64,000 bases of DNA, taken from a bacterium (GTDB taxonomy: Bacteria > Planctomycetota > Planctomycetia > Pirellulales > Pirellulaceae). The stretch lies in assembly GCA_030430075.1 (NCBI GenBank), contig JAUIGN010000007.1, positions 86,458-150,457 on the forward strand, read 5' to 3'. The position numbers and the translations under genes were made by a program. The number at the start of each line of letters is the position of its first letter. The stretch's first letter is position 1. The notes under the pieces were generated by a model that was not told the origin of the DNA, did no database searches, and saw nothing but the letters and a program-made list of their open reading frames with translations. Positions 12,202-25,099 of the stretch are shown piece after piece.

Positions 12202-14067
<1,866 letters not shown>

Positions 14068-14104
14068 GTTTGTGTTTCCTTCACAGAGTAGTTGATGGCA
14101 CGTC

Positions 14105-16306
14105 TTATTCGCTGGGCGTCACGACCAGGTTGTCGAAGTACGAGTCCGCCAAGGCGTAGTTATAGAGTCCCGGGCTTCCCGTCAGGTTGGCATGGGGGTC
14201 GACGGTTTCCAGGGTCCACGCCTCCGGTTCGGGCTCGCCCCGCTTCCAGATCTTTCCGTGCAGGTGCGCCTCTTCGCCCTTGATATCCACACGAAACTTC
14301 ATGGTGTACCAGATGTCCGGATCCGAGCGAAAGCGAATCTCTTTCGCCATGCGGAGATGCGGAGGCCAACTCTGGACGGAGAGTTTGACCAGGTTGCCCT
14401 TGATAATGAAGTTGTAGCGATTGGCTGTAATGCCGATGCTGGGCAGGCGTCGCTTTTGTTCCTTCATCAGGACGTCTGCTTGGATTGTGTACCCGCTCAT
14501 CGTCGAATCACCCAGCCAAACGTAGGAGCTGGGGCGGCCTTTGGCGGCAGTTGCTTTCTTGAGGCCTTTCTCCCCGTCGACTTCCGCCGGCGCAACGACG
14601 ATTCCATTCACCCAGGTGGCGGGCCGCTGGCCATCATTGAAATCAAACTTCCAGGGTAGCTTCGGAAACACGCGCAGCCGCGCCTGGGCGGTCAGATCAC
14701 CGTGTTTGGCAACCACGTGCCCAGCCAACCGCAGGTTGCCTTCGCCGACGACCAGCTTGCTGCCGTCGACTTGGACTCCTTCCAGGTCGGCTTGCGGTTC
14801 GAGTTGGGGTTCCAGCTTCTTGACGAACCGGCCGTTCTTGTCGAAGGCATGAAGTTCGTAGGGAACCTCGCCGGTGCCGTTGATGTAGGTTTCAAACGGG
14901 ACAAGCTGAATGGTCGCGATCTCGTCGGTGGCCGGCGTCTCGTCCGGCAGCGAGGGAATGGGATCGCTATCGGGTTTTCGATCCTCTTGGCCGAGACAGA
15001 TCGTGCGGTCCCGGGTAACCAGGAAAATCCGCCCATCGGAGATCGCGGGCGAGGCGTAGATTTCGTCGGTCCCTGCCCCGGTCGCATCCAAGAGTTCCCG
15101 GTGGGACAGCGTCTCGCAACCCTCGCGGCTCGGCTTGAGGATATGAATATTCCCGTTCACTTCCATGACGTAGATTTTGCCATCGGCCCAGACGGGTGAA
15201 CCCTTACCGACGGAGCCCAGATCCTTGACCCACAGTTCCTCACCCGTCTTGCTATCGTAGGCATGCATGTTGCCGGTGTCGGCGACCACGTACAGAATGC
15301 CGTCTTTGACCAGCAGGCCGGTGTATCCGGCCTTGACGTTGTTCACTCGCCACACGCTATGAGACTCGGTTACGTCCCCGCTGCCGGTGGCGTCGATGCA
15401 TTGGATCCGACCAAATGCGGTACTGTCGATATTGTCTTCGCCGTGGGAGATGTAAACGAGGTTGCCGTCGACCACGGGGGACGCGTTGAGGCCTCGCTTG
15501 GACATATGGAATCCCCAGATCGACTCGCCCGTGCGGGCGTTGATTCCGTAGATCCCTCCATCTGCGTTGCCACAGATCAACTGCCGTTGCCCGTTGATCA
15601 CCGCGACGATCGGATTGGAGTACGTAGTGTCCTCGGGCGCGCCGCCGGGCGCCGCGGTCCAGAGCAGCCGGCCGTCATTCTTGTCAAAGGCATAGAACGT
15701 ATGCTTGGGCGCGGGGCCCTTGGTTTCGCCCCAGTTGCGAGCCAGGAAGGCCACGATCACGCGATTCTCATCAATGATGGGTGTTTGGGTACGGCCGCCG
15801 TAACCAGAGATCTTGCCGAAATCTTCGAACAGCGAATGTTCCCAGAGGATGTTCCCGTCCGGATCGTAGCAACGGAAGATGCCGCTCACCGAGTGGACGA
15901 TGGCGTTCCCGGTCTCCGAGTCGCCAACCATGCTGGCCCATCCGACACGAGGTGCCGCGATGTCGGTCTGGAACACGTTGAACTCGTGTCGCCAAAGTTC
16001 TTTTCCGGTGGCGGCGTCGGCGCAAAGGACGTGCTCGCGGGCATGCACTTTTTCTGGGCCGTTGACGTTGTGCGTCGTACGCGCGTTCAGAAACATGCGT
16101 CCCTTGACGATGACCGGAGTTGCCCGACCGCCGTACGGCTGGTCCCAGAGGACGTTCTGTTTGCCTTCGAGGGACCAGTCACTGACAAGGCCCTTGTCGC
16201 GGGATACACCGTTCTGTTCGGGACCTCTCCAATAGGCCCAGTCCGCAGCCTGGGTGATCCCGGCGCACAAGATCGTGGAGATGAGCAGGCAAAGTCGTGT
16301 TTTCAT
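14105..16306 (-). CDS. PQQ-like beta-propeller repeat protein, secreted
   Basis: The signal peptide reads [20 protein letters not shown]^AD. It has multiple PQQ/WD-like blades ([58 protein letters not shown]). It lies 37 bp upstream of the first PQQ gene. Confidence 0.75.
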
Positions 16307-16418
16307 CAGGGTACCTCGTGGTGTCGGCTCGAGTCCGGCGCGGTACGCCGGACGGTGGTGGATCTAGACAGTCTTGGTTCGGTTTCGAGTGCTGATCCGG
16401 GCGTCACGGCGCGTTGCC

Positions 16419-16784
16419 TCAATCGTCAAACCACTCGTCCTCGGGGTCGAATTTCGGGTAGACGACGATCAACACTTTCATGTTCCCGACGGCCCGGTGC
16501 CTCGTGCCCGGGCGGATCATGATGCAGACCCCGGGTTGCACGTCGAGCAACTGGTCGTCGACCTGCATTTTTGCGTCCGGCCCGCACTCGAGGAAGTAAT
16601 AGGTTTCCGTCAAGCGCTTGTGGTAGTGGAGCCGTGCTTCGGCCGAGATCTCGGTGACATGAATCGTGCCGGGATAGTCGGCCACATCACGAAAGGCCCG
16701 GCGGGCCTGGCCACAAGGGCAGGGGACGGGTGGCAGGTCCGTAAAGTCAACCAATTCGTAGCCGGGCTGGCTGGTAGCGGTCAT
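16419..16784 (-). CDS. Cupin domain protein
   Basis: Cupin-2-like motifs read HYHKRLTETYYFLEG...VQPGVCIMIRPGTRHRAVG. The start is placed at the Met of MTATSQ rather than the ORF-track 16871. Confidence 0.6.
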   Translation of the reverse strand: MTATSQPGYELVDFTDLPPVPCPCGQARRAFRDVADYPGTIHVTEISAEARLHYHKRLTETYYFLECGPDAKMQVDDQLLDVQPGVCIMIRPGTRHRAVGNMKVLIVVYPKFDPEDEWFDD

Positions 16785-17404
16785 CGAGAACAACCATGGG
16801 CGGGAAATAGCCGGCAGGAAAACCCTGCCGACGCCGCATATCTTATCAAATCGCAAATCGCCCGACCACAACCTCTCACGACGAGTTCGTCGGCCGGCGG
16901 CCCCGGCGGCGTCCCGTGCGGTTGGTAAACCTTAACGATTGGGTATCCGTTAACGCCTGCCGACCGCCGAATTCAGGCCGGATCGGCGTATCAACCGGCA
17001 TCGTTGGATCACCTTACCAAGCCGTCAAGGTTTATCTAAAGGTAGTTGTAAACCACTTGCTGAAAAATGGTTCCGATCATTCAAGCGGTCTTGACGGCTG
17101 GGACGATACGGTAGTTGTCGGGCGTCGCGGACTTTGACTGACCGCGGCCAACGACACGACAGACCGGAGCAGACTTTATCGAGTCAAGGAATGGCTCGGC
17201 CGGTTCAAACGTCGTACGCTGTTTGCCGTGGAAAACCCGACATTCGCCACCAAACAGCAAGCAAGTCGAAACGGAATTCATTGCTTTCGGTTCGCAAGAA
17301 TCAACCGCGGAGCAGATGTGCGTGTTGGACCCGCATCCTACGCTCACCATCGGCCCCCGAACTTGATCGACTTGCAACAGCGGCAGTCGATGGTTCCATC
17401 GTAC

Positions 17405-17410
17405 AAGGAG
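17405..17410 (+). promoter_or_regulatory. Shine-Dalgarno sequence AAGGAG, 10 nt upstream of ATG 17421
   Basis: A direct read shows this is a strong SD, which is uncommon in this window. Confidence 0.6.
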
Positions 17411-17420
17411 ACATGGCTCG

Positions 17421-18215
17421 ATGAAGTGGAAAATCTTGTTAGGGACAGTAGTGCTGGGCATTGGCCTGTCTACTCAAAGCTTCGGCTTCGAGTTGCTTGA
17501 CCGGATGCTGGGCGTTTCCCAGAAGAGCGGTAAAGGTGGTTGCGGCTGTGCCCAAAAGGACAGCGGCAAAGGCGCCTGTCAAAAGGGTGGTTGCGGCCTG
17601 TTGGGCGGACACGCTCAGAAGGGTGGCTGCGGCGGCGCTTGCCAGAAAGATGGTAAGGGCGGATGCGGCGGTGCTTGCCAGAAAGACGGCAAGGGCGGTT
17701 GCGGCGGTGCTTGCCAGAAGGACGGCAAGGGCGCCTGCCAGAAGGACGGTAAGGGCGGATGCGGCGGTGCTTGCCAGAAGGGCGGCCTCTTCGGGCACGT
17801 CCAAAAGGGTGGCAAGGGCGGTTGCGGCGGTGCTTGCCAGAAGGACGGCAAGGGTGCCTGCCAGAAGGACGGTAAGGGCGGTTGCGGCGGTGCTTGCCAG
17901 AAAGACGGCAAGGGCGCCTGCCAAAAGGACGGTAAGGGTGGATGCGGCGGTGCTTGCCAGAAAGACGGCAAGGGCGCCTGCCAGAAGGGTGGCAAAGGTC
18001 ACTCGACCCTGTTCGATCGCCTGTTCGGTTGCCGTAGCTGCGGCAAGGGCGGCAAAGGCAAGGGCGACAAAGGCGGCGACAAGGCCTACACCAGCGATGC
18101 ACCTGCTGGCGACGGTGAAGTCGAAGCTCCGATGCCTCCCGCACCGGTTGTCGATCCTTCGGCCTTCCTGCAGACGCGTCGTCCCGTCATCCAAGCGACC
18201 AGCTACGTTCGCTAG
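17421..18215 (+). CDS. Secreted Cys/Gly/Lys-rich tandem-repeat protein with ~12 copies of CGGACQKDGKG(G/A). It is possibly metal-binding.
   Basis: It has the Sec signal MKWKILLGTVVLGIGLSTQSFG, then 14-residue repeats GGCGGACQKDGKGx and a Lys/Gly tail. It has a strong SD and a strong intrinsic terminator. There is no recognisable family. Confidence 0.7.
   Translation: MKWKILLGTVVLGIGLSTQSFGFELLDRMLGVSQKSGKGGCGCAQKDSGKGACQKGGCGLLGGHAQKGGCGGACQKDGKGGCGGACQKDGKGGCGGACQKDGKGACQKDGKGGCGGACQKGGLFGHVQKGGKGGCGGACQKDGKGACQKDGKGGCGGACQKDGKGACQKDGKGGCGGACQKDGKGACQKGGKGHSTLFDRLFGCRSCGKGGKGKGDKGGDKAYTSDAPAGDGEVEAPMPPAPVVDPSAFLQTRRPVIQATSYVR
17560..18010. repeat. ~42-bp coding tandem repeat (ggcggtgcttgccagaaagacggcaagggcggttgc) of ~10 or more units
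   Basis: A direct read shows the repeat. It generates many spurious antisense and alternate-frame ORFs (17439..18194, 17461..18231, 17470..18144, 17615..17995). Confidence 0.85.
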
Positions 18216-18246
18216 TCCGGCTCTGACGTGATGAATTCGATACGAA

Positions 18247-18283
18247 AACGGCCTGTTGGAGAAATCCTTCAGGCCGTTTTTTG
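18247..18283 (+). terminator. Rho-independent terminator
   Basis: The sequence is aacggcctg-(14 nt loop)-caggccgtt followed by TTTTTTG. It has a 9-bp perfect stem and lies 30 bp after the stop of the Cys-rich gene. Confidence 0.75.
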
Positions 18284-18324
18284 TTTCGAAGCGTGTCCCG
18301 GTCGCCGATGCCGGGCTGCCCAGG

Positions 18325-19503
18325 TCAGGCGTTCACTGATTCCGCGGAGGCCGCCTGAATCAAGCCGCTGGCGAATCCCAGCAAATCACCCCGTTGCCGA
18401 CAGAACCGCTTGACCGGCTCGAAGTCCCGCGCCTGCTCCGACAGCTCCAACAGGATCGGGACGACCTGTGCCTCCTGGTTCCGCGGATTCTCACCGAATG
18501 CGATCAGCGCTTCAATTGCCTCGCCGGGCCGTTGGACGCGATCCAGCAACTGCACGTAGACCTCCATCGGTTGCGATCCATGTTCGCCCGGATCAAGGGA
18601 CATCGCCTTATCCCGAAAGAAGGCGACCGCTTCATCCACCTGCTCGCCCAACAACGCGGCGAAATACAATGCGTGGCTGGGATAGATGTCCGCAAACGGT
18701 TCATCCCCCTGGTACTGAAACTGAGAGCTCAACTTGCGGCCGTAGGCCGTCAGGTCCAGCGCCAGCCGGAGTTGCCCGGGGTCTTCCAGAACTCGAGCGA
18801 AGCGGACCGTCGATGCGAGGTGTGTCGTATCGACATGATACGAGTGCTCGCCAAACATCCAGTCGCGGTCCGCCACCAACTCTGCCAGCGTCGTTTCCGG
18901 CGGCTCGCTTCCCTCCTGCTGTGCGATATCGGCCCGCACGCTGGCCAGCAGCTCGCCGTGCAGATGCTCGACAAGCAGCCCGGCGGCGGCACGCTGGTCG
19001 GGGAGCGGTTGGCGAGCCACGCTCGACTCGTACGTCGTGATCGCGTTGCACGTGCCGTAGTGTTCCAGCACGAGGCCGTAACCCCGACTCGGGTCCACAC
19101 CTTCGTGGAGGCAGATCTCGATCAACTCTTCGACGTTGTCCTCGGTCGGCTCGATCGCCTGGAGCGCCTTGGCGACTGCCGGACGATCACCGATCGGCCG
19201 CATGTACATCCATCCCTCGCGCGCCGAACCATCGTCCAGCAGCAACATGCCGACTTCGCGGCAGGCTTCCAACAGCCCGTCCTCCAGGCCGTTCCGCTGC
19301 GACTCGTCCAGTTCGTCCCCCGATTCGCTGTAGGTGATCGGCAAGCCAAGTCCGTGCCGAACCTTCATTTTCAGCGCTTCAAACAGCTCGTGATACTTCT
19401 TCTCCTCCCGCAACTGAGAGATCAGTTGATCCAGGACCCCCGTAACGCCGCCGTCGGCGAGTCCCTGTTCAAGTTGATCGAAGTTGTCTTGGGGCGTGGA
19501 CAT
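18325..19503 (-). CDS. Hypothetical protein, predicted mostly alpha-helical
   Basis: It is a long ORF with coding-like composition. The start is re-placed at MSTPQDNFDQLEQ (ATG 19503). The ORF-track N-terminal 116 residues are Arg/Pro-rich leader. No family was recognised. Confidence 0.5.
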   Translation of the reverse strand: MSTPQDNFDQLEQGLADGGVTGVLDQLISQLREEKKYHELFEALKMKVRHGLGLPITYSESGDELDESQRNGLEDGLLEACREVGMLLLDDGSAREGWMYMRPIGDRPAVAKALQAIEPTEDNVEELIEICLHEGVDPSRGYGLVLEHYGTCNAITTYESSVARQPLPDQRAAAGLLVEHLHGELLASVRADIAQQEGSEPPETTLAELVADRDWMFGEHSYHVDTTHLASTVRFARVLEDPGQLRLALDLTAYGRKLSSQFQYQGDEPFADIYPSHALYFAALLGEQVDEAVAFFRDKAMSLDPGEHGSQPMEVYVQLLDRVQRPGEAIEALIAFGENPRNQEAQVVPILLELSEQARDFEPVKRFCRQRGDLLGFASGLIQAASAESVNA

Positions 19504-19899
19504 AACGTGATTCCGATGGCCTGGGGTGCACTTAACAACGGGATGATCGTGACACCGTTGCCGCGGATCCGGTGACGAATACCGAGCCGGCCAGGGCGGG
19601 AGGCTCGGGCTGCCCGTCCGGGTGGTGGTTGGCGGCAAGCGGCCGCCGGCGGGACGCCGGCGCGTACCCCATCCTAACAACTGGTAACCGGTCCGGGTAG
19701 AGACGGCCGTGCCGCGCAGGGCTGGCCCGCGAAGTGAGCCGGGCGTCCGGCCCGGCATCACGACGGGTATCGTTCGGACCGGTGCCGGTGGCCAGGTCGC
19801 ATCGTCGTCTGCACCAAGGATTTCCTGCCGGCCGCACCCGCCGCTCAACTCAACCTGGCCTTGTTCCGCGAATCCGAGGGATCAAGTAGCATAGCTAGA

Positions 19900-21825
19900 A
19901 TGAATGCACCATCTGAATCATTTCATGGGCTGGCCGTTGCCGCCTTGGAAAGCCGTCGTGCCGATGACATGGCCCGCCTGATCACGAAACATGGCGGCCA
20001 GGCCAACGTCAGCCCGTCCATGCGCGAAGTCCCGCTGGAGTCCAATGTCAAGGCGGTCGACTTTGCGCACCGTCTGATCACCGGCGAGATCGGGATCGTG
20101 ATCTTCATGACCGGCGTCGGCTTCCAGCACCTCTTGGATGTCGTCGAGCGGCACATGGATCGTCAACGCTATCTCGATGCCCTCTCGGACATCGTTACGA
20201 TCGCCCGGGGACCCAAGCCGACGGCCGCCATGAAGGCCGTCGGCCTCACGCCCACGCATCGTGTCCCCGAACCGAATACGTGGCGAGACGTGCTGACCAC
20301 CATTGACGCGGGCGTTCCGGTCGCCAATCAGGTCCTGGGGCTGCAGGAGTACGGCAAGTCAAATTCGAGCCTCGTAGCCGGCCTGGAAGCACGAGGGGCC
20401 CAGGTCGTCAGTGTGCCGGTTTACAAATGGGGACTCCCCGAGTCCCGTACTGCGCTGGAAGAGAATGTTCGGGCGATCGCCGCGGGCGAACGGTCCGTGG
20501 TGTTGTTCACCGCGGCCCAGCAAGTCATCAACCTGCTGGCCGTGGCCAACGAACTGGGTGTCTATGAACAGCTCCGCCAGCAGTTGGGCAACCTGGTCGT
20601 CGCTTCGATCGGACCCACAACGAGCGAGACACTTCGCGAATTGGACATTCCGGTCGATGTCGAACCGGCGCATCCCAAGATGGGGGCGTTGGTGGCCGCC
20701 GCCGCAGCGGAGAGCGAGTCCATTTTGGCGCGCAAGCAGCGCGTCGCCGTGCTGCTTTCCAGCCCGGCCTCCGACCCGCACGACCAGCAGGCACCCTGGT
20801 ATCACAATCCATTCATGAAAGCGTGTCGCAGTGAACCGAGCGACGTGACGCCGGTCTGGCTGATGCGGCAGGCCGGGCGCTACATGGCCGAATATCGCGA
20901 AGTGCGGGCGAAGACGACGTTCTTGGAACTCTGCAAGAACCCCCAACTGTGCAGCGAGATCATGGTGACCGCCGTCAATCGGTTAGGCGTGGACGCGGCC
21001 ATCATTTTCTCCGATCTCCTGCCGATCCTCGAACCGATGGGGCTGGACCTGGAGTTCGCCCAAGGTGAAGGGCCGGTTATTCACAACCCGATTCGTGAGG
21101 CGGCCGACGTTGATCGCGTGTTGGAACTGGAGACCGTGGACGCGTTGGACTTCGTCGTGGAGACCGTCCGCCAGACCCGCCTCGACCTGCCTGACGATAT
21201 CCCGTTGATCGGCTTCGCCGGCGCGCCATTCACGTTGGCCAGCTACACGATCGAGGGAGGGGCGAGCCGAAATTATCTCCACACGAAGACGCTGATGTAC
21301 CGTGACGCCGGCGCATGGCAGGCCCTGATGGAACGCTTCGTCCGGGCGGTGACGCGTTACTTGAATGCGCAGATCGCCGCCGGTGCCCAGTGCGTGCAAC
21401 TGTTTGATTCCTGGGTCGGGTGCCTCGGGCCGGACGACTACCGCCGCTACGTGCTGCCGTACGTTTCGGAAATCGTTGCCGGGATCACCCCCGGTGTCCC
21501 CGTGATCAACTTCGGGACCGGCAATCCGGCCCTGCTGCCGCTGCTGGCCGAAGCGGGCAGCAAAGTCGTCGGCATCGATTGGCGCGTGCGGCTCGATGAA
21601 GCATGGAAGACCGTCGGACATGATCGGACTGTGCAAGGCAACCTCGACCCGCTCGTCCTGCTCGCCGATCGCGAGCTGATTCGCCAACGCGTCCAGGAAG
21701 TGCTCGACCAGGCCGGCGGGCGCCCTGGTCACATCTTCAACCTGGGGCACGGCGTCTTGCAACAGACCCCGGTCGACAACGCCATCGCCCTCGTCGACGC
21801 CGTGCACGAACTGAGCAGCCGCTGA
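19900..21825 (+). CDS. hemDE: Bifunctional uroporphyrinogen-III synthase / uroporphyrinogen decarboxylase (HemD-HemE fusion)
   Basis: The N-terminal ~290 aa are HemD-like (LESRRADDMARLI...VVASIGPTTSETLRELDIP). The C-terminal ~350 aa are HemE (DVTPVWLMRQAGRYMAEYREVRAK...FLELCKNPQL...IFSDLL...FNLGHGV). Confidence 0.8.
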   Translation: MNAPSESFHGLAVAALESRRADDMARLITKHGGQANVSPSMREVPLESNVKAVDFAHRLITGEIGIVIFMTGVGFQHLLDVVERHMDRQRYLDALSDIVTIARGPKPTAAMKAVGLTPTHRVPEPNTWRDVLTTIDAGVPVANQVLGLQEYGKSNSSLVAGLEARGAQVVSVPVYKWGLPESRTALEENVRAIAAGERSVVLFTAAQQVINLLAVANELGVYEQLRQQLGNLVVASIGPTTSETLRELDIPVDVEPAHPKMGALVAAAAAESESILARKQRVAVLLSSPASDPHDQQAPWYHNPFMKACRSEPSDVTPVWLMRQAGRYMAEYREVRAKTTFLELCKNPQLCSEIMVTAVNRLGVDAAIIFSDLLPILEPMGLDLEFAQGEGPVIHNPIREAADVDRVLELETVDALDFVVETVRQTRLDLPDDIPLIGFAGAPFTLASYTIEGGASRNYLHTKTLMYRDAGAWQALMERFVRAVTRYLNAQIAAGAQCVQLFDSWVGCLGPDDYRRYVLPYVSEIVAGITPGVPVINFGTGNPALLPLLAEAGSKVVGIDWRVRLDEAWKTVGHDRTVQGNLDPLVLLADRELIRQRVQEVLDQAGGRPGHIFNLGHGVLQQTPVDNAIALVDAVHELSSR

Positions 21826-22170: not shown

Positions 22171-23172
22171 TCACGATGTCTCACGGATGTGCACCCAGGT
22201 GTGGACGTGGGGTTTGCCGCGGAAATACCAGACCATGTTGGGACCTTCGACTTGCCAGACGTCCCAAACTTCATCCTCGCCGATGTTCTCGTCCTTGTAG
22301 AAGGAAAAATGAAGGTTGTCTAAACCGTTCTTCGTGATGTACTTCATCGACTCGCGGCGATCCGCTTCGCGGAACGGTGCGAGCAGATCCTCCAGAACCT
22401 GCTCGGCCAACTTTTTCTGGTCGGCCGACAATTCGGAGACCGGGATCCCGTCCAGGTCCCCGGGGTTGCCGCGTAATTCGACCGTCTTGTTACCCTGTTC
22501 GCCGCGCGAACGTCCCAGCAGGGCCAGCTTGCGTTGTTTGCCGTCCAGGGCTTGGAACAGTTCGTTTGCCCGCTTGGCCTGATACCAGTAGACATTGCCC
22601 TTGTGATCAGCCGACTCGTAAAAGTCTTCGGCGGCGTGTCCGTAAAAGATAGGCCCGCCGAACGCCGCGCCCTCGACGGAGTCGCCGTCGCACCGCCGGG
22701 TCACGTGGCGGCCCGTCAAGACAAATTCGAATTTGCCGCTGCCCGGTTCGCCGAACAAGGCGATCGAGCTCTTGTCGAAGCCACCGTCATGGTTCACCTG
22801 GCCCACCACCTTGTCGGCCCATTCGGGGCTATGGAGACCCCTGAAGATCTGCAGGATCAAATCCTGTTGGTCGGCATTGAAATCTCGGTCCAGTCGCGTC
22901 TTGGTGATGTGCCAGTTGTTGTTGATCGCCGACCGCAGGGCATGATCGAAGGGGAAACAGACCTGCTTCTTCTGTTTCTCGTTCAGTGACCCATGCAGCT
23001 GTTGTACCAGCGTTTCGGGCTCGGCCGGCGCCGCGTCCTTGGCGACTGCGGGGAGGCTGGTTACCAGACCGCTCGACGCCGCCAGGCCGACAGCCGTGGT
23101 CGACTTAAGGAACGCGCGCCGCGAAGGATGGTCCGCCACAATGTGCTGTTTGTTGTCGTGATGAGTGGACAT
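22171..23172 (-). CDS. Tat-secreted protein, DUF3500-like
   Basis: It has the Tat motif HPSRRAFLKSTTAVGLAASSG and a GGAGG SD 8 nt upstream of ATG 23172. The family call is tentative. Confidence 0.5.
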   Translation of the reverse strand: MSTHHDNKQHIVADHPSRRAFLKSTTAVGLAASSGLVTSLPAVAKDAAPAEPETLVQQLHGSLNEKQKKQVCFPFDHALRSAINNNWHITKTRLDRDFNADQQDLILQIFRGLHSPEWADKVVGQVNHDGGFDKSSIALFGEPGSGKFEFVLTGRHVTRRCDGDSVEGAAFGGPIFYGHAAEDFYESADHKGNVYWYQAKRANELFQALDGKQRKLALLGRSRGEQGNKTVELRGNPGDLDGIPVSELSADQKKLAEQVLEDLLAPFREADRRESMKYITKNGLDNLHFSFYKDENIGEDEVWDVWQVEGPNMVWYFRGKPHVHTWVHIRETS

Positions 23173-23180
23173 GCTGGAAG

Positions 23181-23185
23181 CCTCC
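23181..23185 (-). promoter_or_regulatory. Shine-Dalgarno sequence GGAGG for the 22171..23172 gene
   Basis: The + strand reads cctcc, 8 nt upstream of the start codon on the - strand. Confidence 0.5.
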
Positions 23186-23384
23186 GTGAGGGGTGGGTGC
23201 AATCAAGAACGGCGGTATTGCCGAGCGAGGACGACGGTCGTCGGGAAACTCCAGCGCCGCTCAACAGCCAAAAGGCCTCTGCGGTCGTCGACAAGACCGA
23301 GCGTTGCCGGGGTTCACCCCATGAATTAGAAACGAGCGGCGGCAAGGATGCAAATCCGGAGCGGGCGAGATGCCTGAGGCAGGC

Positions 23385-24737
23385 TTAGAGCTGCTTGAGG
23401 TATTCCAGCACGGCCGCTTTCTCGGCGGGCGTGAGCACTTCGGGGAACAGGTGGCCTTGGGCACTCTTGCCGAACTTTCTGGTGTCGAAATGAGCCCGCC
23501 GCGTCCAGACGTCCAGCCCGCGCGGCACGTCTGTCAGGGTTTCCACCTCCAGCCCGACACGTGCCTGGTCGAAACCGTCCCCACGAGTCCGCTTCCAGAC
23601 GGCAGGCCGTTCCGCAGGATGCAGCACGTGCCACAACGTGGGCACGCTGCCGTTGTGGAAATAAGGAGCTGATGCCCAGATGCCGTCGAGCGGTGGTGCG
23701 ACGTAGCCGGGCGGATCGACGAGGACACGATCTTTGCCATATCGGGAAAACCAGTTCTGCCGATAATCTTCGTGATGCTCGGCGGTCAAGGCATCGTCCC
23801 GTGCTCGATCGGTGCCGATTTCGGCGAGCGGAACATTGCGCTCCGGGTAGCTGGGCCGATCGCCGTACGTCCCATGACAGTCGGCACAGTGGCGGTTGAA
23901 GATGGCCGCACCTTGCCTCGCCAAACGCTCGTCGATGCCAAACGGGTAGGCGGGCGGTTCAAGTGATTCCAGATACGCGTAGATGTCGCGAAAATCATCT
24001 TCCCAGGTGTGGAATTTCTCAGGTCCGTTTTGCTGGTCCAAGGCGAACTGCATCAGCGGTCGATGGCCCTTCGATGCGAATCCTTCCAGGTAGAGTCGTT
24101 CCTTCTTCGAGAAATGCCACCAGGGCGGCGCGTCCATGTCATGGTGAACGAAGGGGCTCGACTGTTTGGACGGCACGACATTCAGGTCCTGGTCCCGATA
24201 GGCGGCCAGCGCGACACCAAAAATGACGGCGTTTGTCGTTCCGTGAGTCCCGCCCAGGGGCATGACCATCGCCCCATAATCGGTCGTCGAGAATGGCTTA
24301 CCCATTCTCAATTTGACGAGCCGCGATTCCTGGATTAGCGTCTGCAGCGCGTAATGGGAATTCGGCAAACCGGGGATGATCTGCCCAGCCACCGTCCCGC
24401 CGTGGCAGGTAAAGCAATTGGGCGTCCAGTTTCCCTGCCCATCGACGACGAACTGCAGCGGCTTGCCGGAATCATCGCCGGGCCGCGTCGTCAAGCCGTA
24501 GCGGGCAAACGCCATCTCACGTCGGCGGGCCGGCGAGGCCGCTTCCGCTTCCGCCCGGAGTTCGCTCGGCCACGTCGTCCAGAGGTTGTCGAACACCTCC
24601 TGGTCAAAGTACGCCGGGACATAGGGCGTCTCCAGCAGGTGCCGATACCCGCGTTCCGCGGCCGTTTCTTCCGCGATTGCCGCACCCGTCATCCACCAGG
24701 CGACGACCGCGAGCCATAGTAAGAAGCCACTTTTCAT
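23385..24737 (-). CDS. Secreted di-haem c-type cytochrome, possibly cytochrome-c peroxidase/MauG-like
   Basis: There are two CxxCH motifs (CFTCHGG, CADCHGTYGD) about 165 aa apart. The start is placed at MKSGFLLWLAVVAWWMTGAAIA, a signal peptide. Confidence 0.65.
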   Translation of the reverse strand: MKSGFLLWLAVVAWWMTGAAIAEETAAERGYRHLLETPYVPAYFDQEVFDNLWTTWPSELRAEAEAASPARRREMAFARYGLTTRPGDDSGKPLQFVVDGQGNWTPNCFTCHGGTVAGQIIPGLPNSHYALQTLIQESRLVKLRMGKPFSTTDYGAMVMPLGGTHGTTNAVIFGVALAAYRDQDLNVVPSKQSSPFVHHDMDAPPWWHFSKKERLYLEGFASKGHRPLMQFALDQQNGPEKFHTWEDDFRDIYAYLESLEPPAYPFGIDERLARQGAAIFNRHCADCHGTYGDRPSYPERNVPLAEIGTDRARDDALTAEHHEDYRQNWFSRYGKDRVLVDPPGYVAPPLDGIWASAPYFHNGSVPTLWHVLHPAERPAVWKRTRGDGFDQARVGLEVETLTDVPRGLDVWTRRAHFDTRKFGKSAQGHLFPEVLTPAEKAAVLEYLKQL

Positions 24738-25099
24738 CGCGCTCACCAGGTTGAACGTGTCGTTCTCCGTGCGAATCAAGTCCGGGCATCCCTTCCCGCC
24801 GGGGCGGCCCCAACGCCGACCTTGCTGTTGGCTTGCCGCAACGGCATCGAGCGATGTCCGCAAATGCTTCCTGGGTCGCGTGGAACGACCCATCTCGCGA
24901 GCCAAGCGGCCGGCAGACACGGCGCCTCATCGCCACCCCGTGTGACGCTAACCGCAGTCTAGGCGTGACCTTCACCAACGACAAGCGGCAGCCCGCAGAG
25001 GAACCGAGCTCGACGAGCCATCGTGCTTCATTGTTAACTTCCGTCGCAAGATGGTGGCTCGTGTACTCCACCGCGAGGCGGTAAGGCTTCTGGAAGCGG

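Follow-up and report, generated by a model that had tools for sequence, protein, structure and literature searches.

The locus considered here raises the question of what kind of protein is encoded by a Cys-rich, repetitive open reading frame (ORF) at positions 17421 to 18215 of a 64,000-nt stretch of contig JAUIGN010000007.1 (assembly GCA_030430075.1, family Pirellulaceae), hereafter called the window. The protein is a member of a large undescribed family, seen only in Pirellulales-type planctomycetes (few members carry names), in which two near-invariant ends enclose a hypervariable middle that is predicted to be disordered. The gene is preceded by a candidate regulatory RNA. As to its function, binding of metals outside the cytoplasm is our tentative proposal.

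Architecture of the gene product

The following features of the gene product carry the analysis.

17421..18215, + strand: coding sequence, ATG start, 264 aa, stop codon included
17421..17486, + strand: predicted Sec signal peptide MKWKILLGTVVLGIGLSTQSFG, assigned by inspection of the sequence; almost unchanged among 81 homologues; helix at residues 2-17 in the AlphaFold2 (AF2) model
17487..17513, + strand: mature N-terminal motif FELLDRMLG; L25, L26, D27, R28, M29, L30 and G31 invariant or at least 90% conserved; AF2 helix 19-29
17520..17999, + strand: Cys/Gly/Lys-rich repeat region with 16 xQK units and 22 of the 24 Cys, broken up by the hydrophobic motifs GLLGGH and GGLFGH
18006..18041, + strand: hydrophobic motif TLFDRLFGCRSC, family consensus LLDRIFxC; L197, F202 and C207 at least 90% conserved; AF2 helix 197-202
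18126..18212, + strand: C-terminal motif APMPPAPVVDPSAFLQTRRPVIQATSYVR, aa 236-264, 29 residues, non-repeat; A241, P242, D245 and A248 invariant; predicted local distance difference test score (pLDDT) 74-80

The sequence-only reading had taken the ORF for a real gene, and its coordinates and frame were confirmed. Both termini are kept in this frame by hundreds of homologues, and in the terminal 91 codons the comparison with the closest relative (locus L002) revealed 17 synonymous and only 4 non-synonymous changes in addition to in-frame indels. The frame is thus well established. Four long spurious ORFs (251, 256, 224 and 126 aa) lie over the repeats in other frames or on the opposite strand (17439-18231). 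These overlapping ORFs are by-products of the GC-rich repeats and could mislead gene callers.

The N-terminus begins with MKWK, carrying Lys2 and Lys4, followed by a hydrophobic core of 12 residues and the residues S-F-G in front of F, with small residues at -3 and -1. It fits a cleavable Sec signal, as the sequence-only reading had claimed, and would leave a mature chain of about 240 residues. The conservation of the signal peptide across the family is unusual. Neither a twin arginine nor a lipobox was found in it: the pattern [LVI][ASTVI][GAS]C is absent from the window protein, where GLSTQ contains no Cys, and the LGLC of its relatives has Leu at -1 and a Cys that is not conserved.

The near-invariant N-terminus of the family reads MKWNIL.G..VLGLGL.TQSFG-FELLDRMLG and its near-invariant C-terminus APMPPAPVVDPSAFL...RRVIQAS..LVR (also written PMPPAPVVDPSAFL..RRVIQAS..LVR). 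The C-terminal motif at aa 236-264 is the most conserved motif of the family. A profile of both end motifs alone recovered only fragments or chimeric calls of the same family, so that the ends are considered to be family-specific and not a general sorting signal. No NCBIfam match to a sorting signal of the PEP-CTERM type and no C-terminal membrane helix were detected.

Between the ends the window protein is dominated by short repeats. The tandem arrays detected by Tandem Repeats Finder over positions 17676-17988 have periods of 60 and 123 bp (scores 457 and 471; matches 84-87%). The repeat is a 60-bp (20-residue) super-unit built of a 12-residue and an 8-residue unit, and not the 14-residue unit that had been read from the sequence at first. 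The 16 units ending in QK comprise seven copies of the 12-mer DGKGGCGGACQK, five of the 8-mer DGKGACQK and four degenerate copies. Cys occurs 24 times in the protein, while Gly makes up 28% and Lys 14% of it. The CxxxC and Cx7C spacings claimed earlier were counted 7 and 10 times, respectively. The Lys/Gly-rich stretch, which had been taken for the tail of the protein, spans aa 208-222 and is followed by 42 further residues that include the most conserved motif of the family.

The AF2 model, built with an alignment of 56 sequences, averages 51.6 in pLDDT and stays below 50 throughout residues 43-188. Its helices are limited to the signal peptide, FELLDRMLG and LFDRLF. The middle region is therefore predicted to be intrinsically disordered.

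Size and distribution of the family

The window protein has no match in Pfam and NCBIfam at E <= 10 and none among PDB sequences. In this sense the earlier statement that it belongs to no recognisable family stands; it does not hold with regard to relatives, which are numerous and unnamed. A query with the single protein retrieved 81 homologues from a set of 5.8 billion proteins, and a HMMER scan of 1.84 billion representatives yielded 433 clusters (50% identity) at E <= 1e-3 and 271 at E <= 1e-10. Relatives are encoded by 268 confirmed metagenome contig loci, and a single-protein search of genome contigs returned three loci. The concern that no other genome might hold a homologue is thereby dispelled, and repeat numbers vary widely among the related planctomycetes. 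A keratin-associated artefact, which the sequence-only reading had itself raised, found no support either: the window protein does not match such proteins, and the weak keratin-B2 matches in 3 of 56 family members searched against Pfam, the only matches there, reflect composition and not homology.

The names given to members, where there are any, point to metagenome-assembled genomes of Pirellulaceae, Pirellulales, Planctomycetales or Planctomycetota and include no functional name. Members occur in very different habitats, and the gene was single-copy in each locus read. A description of the family was not found in the literature on planctomycete or periplasmic metallothioneins and on Cys-rich repeat proteins.

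Members of the family are easily lost or broken up in assembly and gene calling. The exact window protein is absent from a collection of 15 billion proteins that does contain four proteins from its neighbourhood in this genome, and an assembly made independently for this organism (Logan ERR3428548; L098) breaks within the repeats. This explains in part why the family was overlooked. Furthermore, many of the database "members" are fragments of 30-110 aa or frameshifted calls.

Composition of the variable middle

No alignment of the middle is possible across the family. Its length in 164 full-length members is 28-305 residues, with a median Cys content of 17.8% (range 3.6-31%), a His content of up to 11.6% and a median Gly content of 16%. 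The middle consists of repeats rich in Cys (or His), Gly, Lys and Asp with short hydrophobic motifs of the type LLG, LFG or LLDRIF between them, and aromatic residues are nearly restricted to the end motifs. The middle of the window protein contains no Met.

Close relatives carry His in place of Cys at the same repeat position (KGCAQK versus KGHDQK, KGHTQK or KGHHQK), and C-to-H is the commonest substitution between members P0003 and P0006. Members with at least 5% His contain on average 14.1% Cys as compared to 17.9% in the others. The number of Cys is even in 43 and odd in 36 members, and the absence of an even preference argues against a fixed set of intramolecular disulfides. In 158 members with differing repeat units, CxxxC was 2.3-fold and Cx5C 1.8-fold enriched relative to shuffled sequences, and Gly was enriched beside Cys.

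Transcript and structured leader

The non-coding features of the gene are listed below.

17047..17119, + strand: promoter-like upstream block A, TGTAAACCACTTG..AAAAATGGTTCCGA..TCAAG..N21..TACGGTAGTTGTC, just 5' of the inferred transcript start
17120..17420, + strand: 5' leader of about 290-300 nt; transcript start inferred at about 17120-17135
17163..17204, + strand: leader hairpin B; outer stem ACCGG/CCGGU, inner stem UCGAGUC/GGCUCGG, loop AAGGAAU
17213..17227, + strand: 5' strand of the long-range helix P1, just after hairpin B
17373..17385, + strand: 3' strand of P1, just before the ribosome-binding site
17388..17401, + strand: block C, palindrome CGATGG-TT-CCATCG adjoining the Shine-Dalgarno sequence
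17405..17410, + strand: Shine-Dalgarno sequence AAGGAG, 10 nt before the ATG
18245..18286, + strand: intrinsic terminator, hairpin 18249-18276 followed by the T-run UUUUUUGUUU at 18277-18286

Of the metagenome loci 80 were kept, and 43 distinct loci were used for counts in the leader and the terminator. About 17-22 of the 80 loci are whole contigs of 1.0-1.5 kb whose start lies 263-310 nt ahead of the ATG and whose end lies 9-77 nt past the stop codon (L018-L020, L025-L027, L029-L031, L033, L035, L036, L044, L054, L082, L091, L096). They originate from many different samples, and their 5' ends lie 10-30 nt downstream of the CGATAC of block A. Since random fragmentation would not give such ends, the contigs suggest, as the simplest reading, assembled mRNAs. 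They would accordingly represent a discrete, abundant and monocistronic mRNA of about 1.0-1.2 kb that is ended by the intrinsic terminator.

The strong Shine-Dalgarno sequence noticed at first was recovered, its AGGAGA being invariant in the 43 loci. The terminator was likewise borne out by folding: its hairpin in the window has z = -5.0 with none of 200 shuffles folding as well, and a hairpin with a T-run occurs within 130 nt past the stop codon in 35 of the 43 loci, with stem sequences that differ among loci. A simple pattern scan missed this terminator. Codon usage is shifted towards GGT (35% versus 19% in the other window genes) and GCT (48% versus 7%), which is consistent with high expression, the repeats not being independent observations. 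Together with the transcript-shaped contigs this shift lends indirect support to the expression of the gene that the sequence-only reading had assumed.

Block A (consensus TGTAAACCAC..AAAAAT.GTTCCGA..TCAAG-N21-TACGGTAG.TGTC) occurs once in the window and is kept in all ten aligned genomic loci, including loci with a different upstream gene. A sigma-70 consensus scan found nothing at block A, and according to the scan and the inspection of spacings none of the sigma-70, extracytoplasmic function (ECF) and sigma-54 readings fits it well. A possible reading of block A is a promoter or operator peculiar to the lineage.

The leader, about 290 nt long, is conserved, structured and specific to the gene family, and its absence from Rfam makes it a candidate for a new cis-regulatory RNA. 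Over the 43 loci the inner stem of hairpin B is paired in 100% and the outer stem in 96.7%. One inner pair alternates between G-U and A-U (22:21), and two outer pairs change on both sides. In P1 both-sided changes were observed in 10 of 14 pairs. An alignment-free test of the P1 duplex gave a mean of -17.0 kcal/mol as compared to -11.6 kcal/mol with shuffled partners, and in 36 of the 43 loci the duplex is more stable than the mean of that locus's own shuffles by more than 3 kcal/mol. In the window itself P1 is weak (-13.2 versus -11.1 kcal/mol for shuffled partners). Block C is kept in many loci and paired in 66-69% across the 43. For the whole leader structure 80% of the cells are paired as compared to 25-40% with slid partners, and its covariation score of 0.175 (versus 0.06-0.075) was not reached by any of 500 shuffles. 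The minimum free energy of the whole leader is no better than that of shuffles (z = -0.25). A cmscan of positions 16300-18500 against Rfam 15 at E <= 1 returned only a chance match located on the terminator of the gene (26 bits, with a gathering score of 64).

In hairpin B, the loop together with the 3' arm (AAGGAAUGGCUCGA) is almost a duplicate of the authentic ribosome-binding region (AAGGAGACAUGGCUCGAUG). A pairing of the 5' arm of hairpin B with the start-codon region would be possible between such near copies; it received no covariation support because the partner is invariant coding sequence. A switch in which hairpin B and the ribosome-binding region compete for the same partner is conceivable. 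A conserved upstream ORF of three codons (MAR-stop) overlapping the start was rejected since loci L009 and L013 have no start codon there.

Proposed function and alternative explanations

The interpretation offered by the sequence-only reading is supported in part; it had overlooked the conserved end motifs and the structured leader. We tentatively favour a function in the binding or buffering of metals outside the cytoplasm. Rich in thiol and imidazole groups, the chain would serve in the periplasm or the envelope as a "metal sponge", that is, a buffer of high capacity and low specificity for thiophilic ions (Cu/Zn/Cd/Ni type). Its ligands would be provided by the regularly spaced CxxxC and Cx5-7C pairs and by neighbouring Asp and His, while Lys would contribute to the charge balance and the number of repeats would determine the binding capacity. 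The conserved ends may dock the chain to a partner in the envelope or retain it there, and the structured leader may control the amount of protein made. Metal ligands are favoured over fixed disulfides because of the C-to-H exchanges, the lack of a preference for even Cys numbers and the regular spacing of Cys. The predicted disorder of the middle was also counted in favour of metal binding. Lys beside Cys is typical of metallothioneins, and extracytoplasmic buffering of metals has precedents in the disordered periplasmic sponges SilE and PcoE and in Csp1, an exported copper store lined with Cys. By analogy, the setting of Lys, Asp and Gly and the predicted disorder resemble metallothioneins and SilE/PcoE.

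Several observations weigh against this proposal. No metallothionein or other metal-binding profile matched in Pfam, NCBIfam or the PDB, and no genes for metal resistance, efflux or metal regulators adjoin the gene in the 12 genomic contexts examined. The window protein has a low Cys density, with 9% over its whole length and 13% within the repeats, and member P0183, with 5 Cys, 5 His and 29% Lys+Arg, is poor in both Cys and His. In comparison to shuffled sequences CxxC (0.52-fold), CxC (0.84-fold) and CC (0.77-fold) are under-represented. The family-wide anticorrelation between Cys and His is not significant (rho = -0.12, p = 0.14). Repeats are copies of one another, so that repeat-based counts of Cys and codons are not independent. 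Finally, the compartment to which the protein would be exported is normally oxidising, and thiols tend to form disulfides there.

Nearly as likely as metal binding is a structural role as a protein of the envelope, cell wall or holdfast matrix that is knitted by intermolecular disulfides into a cystine-rich proteinaceous layer, possibly with the ends serving as anchors or sites of polymerisation and the Gly-rich middle as a flexible, cross-linkable spacer. Such a role would suit an exported, Cys-rich and apparently abundant product of a single-copy core gene in a syntenic block as well as its conserved, family-specific end motifs. The random Cys parity agrees with random intermolecular cross-links as well as with metal ligands, the oxidising compartment would promote such links, and planctomycete walls have been reported to be rich in protein and cystine. 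The YTV proteins provide a precedent (PMC8567305), although neither a YTV domain nor any other match to a wall protein was detected. Moreover, cross-linking would be weakened by the replacement of Cys by His and in Cys-poor members such as P0025 (4% Cys) and P0183, random cross-linking offers no evident use for the regular spacing of CxxxC, and a constitutive structural protein would not usually have so elaborate a regulated leader. An extracytoplasmic redox or electrophile buffer, whose thiols would take up oxidants, electrophiles or polysulfide, either sacrificially or with recycling, or would form a thiol-disulfide reservoir, seems unlikely. The high thiol density on a disordered, accessible chain, the absence of a constraint on Cys parity and the apparently regulated translation are in line with it. 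However, no thioredoxin-like or Dsb-type partner is encoded nearby, CxxC as the usual redox-active spacing is depleted, and the His-rich variants would be left unexplained.

Still less probable is a surface adhesive or mineral-interacting protein resembling silaffins, barnacle cement or mussel foot proteins and mediating attachment or mineral nucleation. Pirellulaceae attach via holdfasts, and the secreted low-complexity chain of Lys, Gly, Cys, Asp and His is reminiscent of marine adhesive proteins. Nevertheless, there is no sequence match to such families, residues of the Tyr/DOPA (dihydroxyphenylalanine) or Ser/phospho type are missing, genes for outer-membrane secretion or holdfasts are not consistently linked (a secretin gene lies near the studied gene in one locus only), and the family spans very different habitats. 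The conserved N-terminus in front of a hypervariable Cys-rich middle superficially recalls the leader and core of a ribosomally synthesised and post-translationally modified peptide (RiPP) or bacteriocin precursor. This idea is effectively excluded by the genomic context, as no maturase, radical-SAM enzyme, peptidase-transporter or immunity gene is present in the 12 contexts. In addition, the N-terminus is a standard signal peptide without a double-glycine site, the C-terminus is conserved too, and the single-copy, syntenic genes encode products of 150-400 aa, far larger than such precursors.

A more far-reaching version of the metal-binding proposal appears rather doubtful to us. It would make the protein the first extracytoplasmic disordered bacterial "metallothionein", specific to the Pirellulales and controlled by a new class of leader RNA of about 290 nt that senses metal or redox state directly or via a bound protein. 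In this version the RBS-mimicking hairpin B (RBS, ribosome-binding site) and the long-range helix P1 are proposed as parts of the sensing leader.

Relation to known Cys-rich proteins

The bacterial metallothioneins BmtA/SmtA (PF02069) as well as fungal and animal metallothioneins resemble the studied protein in being small Cys-rich chains of low complexity that contain Lys, Gly, Ser, Asp and Ala, have few aromatic residues and are disordered without metal. The BmtA/SmtA profile describes a Cys9His2 zinc-cluster fold of about 55 aa in cytosolic proteins without a signal peptide. In contrast, the studied protein is exported, 3-5 times longer and lower in Cys density and has conserved end motifs, and in its family CxxxC and Cx5C are the prevailing spacings, with CxC, CxxC and CC rarer than in shuffled sequences. 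Metallothioneins in the broad sense contain about 15-30% Cys in CxC, CxxC and CC motifs and few aromatic residues; Cys amounts to 9% of the window protein and 13% of its middle, and the family median for the middle is 17.8%. PF02069 matched neither the window protein nor any of the 56 members searched. Distant members such as P0065 (CGCDNGCASNGCCDPGCG...) bear a strong resemblance to fungal Cu-metallothioneins.

SilE and PcoE share with the studied protein the export via Sec, the intrinsic disorder, the repetitive ligand motifs and the proposed role as periplasmic metal buffers. Their motifs are, however, built of Met and His and their genes belong to metal-resistance operons, whereas the studied protein uses Cys, lacks Met in its middle, has no such operon and does not match their profiles. 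Csp1 of methanotrophs sets a precedent for metal storage by Cys thiolates outside the cytoplasm, but it is a folded four-helix bundle exported via the twin-arginine translocation (Tat) system, unlike the Sec-type and predicted disordered protein studied here, which has no PDB match.

Among envelope proteins, chlamydial OmcA and OmcB also belong to the Planctomycetes-Verrucomicrobia-Chlamydiae (PVC) superphylum and are exported, Cys-rich and cross-linked by disulfides. The studied protein differs from them in having no lipobox (Cys17 is not conserved and the residue at -1 is wrong) and no sequence match. The keratin-associated high-sulfur proteins (PF01500/PF13885) are alike in composition only. 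The YTV proteins are restricted to planctomycetes, secreted and rich in Cys, as is the studied protein, and are candidate components of a disulfide-stabilised planctomycete envelope (PMC8567305). Yet no YTV domain was found in the window protein or the 56 members, in which a disordered repeat lies between two short motifs.

The protein is thus not a member of the BmtA/SmtA, SilE/PcoE, YTV, lipoprotein-type cysteine-rich, keratin-B2 or sorting-signal families. It may still work like a metallothionein, a metal sponge or a Cys-rich wall protein. It is of a known kind in being a secreted, Cys-rich low-complexity protein, and new in its architecture and its candidate regulatory RNA.

According to long-standing reports, envelopes in the Pirellula group are rich in cystine and consist largely of protein, and few of the responsible proteins are known. 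A lineage-specific, apparently abundant exported Cys-rich protein that was overlooked by annotation bears on the make-up of the planctomycete envelope. If it binds metal, metallothionein-like buffering would extend to the periplasm via an undescribed architecture of disordered repeats between docking motifs. If its role is structural, it would be a new candidate building block of the envelope. Under either reading the leader with its conserved structure is a candidate for a regulatory RNA of a new kind.

Genomic context

The gene is located in a block with the following neighbours in the window.

12202-16871, - strand: two secreted-type PQQ_2 beta-propeller proteins and a small cupin, part of the synteny block
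18325-19497, - strand: 390-aa ORF converging on the same terminator, without a Pfam match
19861-21825, + strand: fused HemD-HemE (uroporphyrinogen-III synthase and decarboxylase), 654 aa, part of the synteny block

The order of the block is one or more PQQ_2 propellers, a small divergent cupin, the studied gene, HemD-HemE (or the uroporphyrinogen decarboxylase URO-D), a LOG-family gene, a gene of 81 aa and Tex. This arrangement was found in the window and in loci L006, L013, L014 and L016 and partially in L009 and L012; loci L004, L008 and L010 have other contexts. The gap to URO-D is sometimes only 22-83 bp, and the terminator still intervenes. No Dsb, maturase or secretion genes are consistently linked in the contexts examined. 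The context is that of a vertically inherited block and a core gene of the lineage and gives no clue to the mechanism.

A few kb downstream, at 22171-24920 on the - strand, the window encodes a DUF3500 protein and a RoxA-like di-haem cytochrome c, for which no link to the studied gene was seen. A gene as long as the 390-aa ORF is located at the same position in locus L013.

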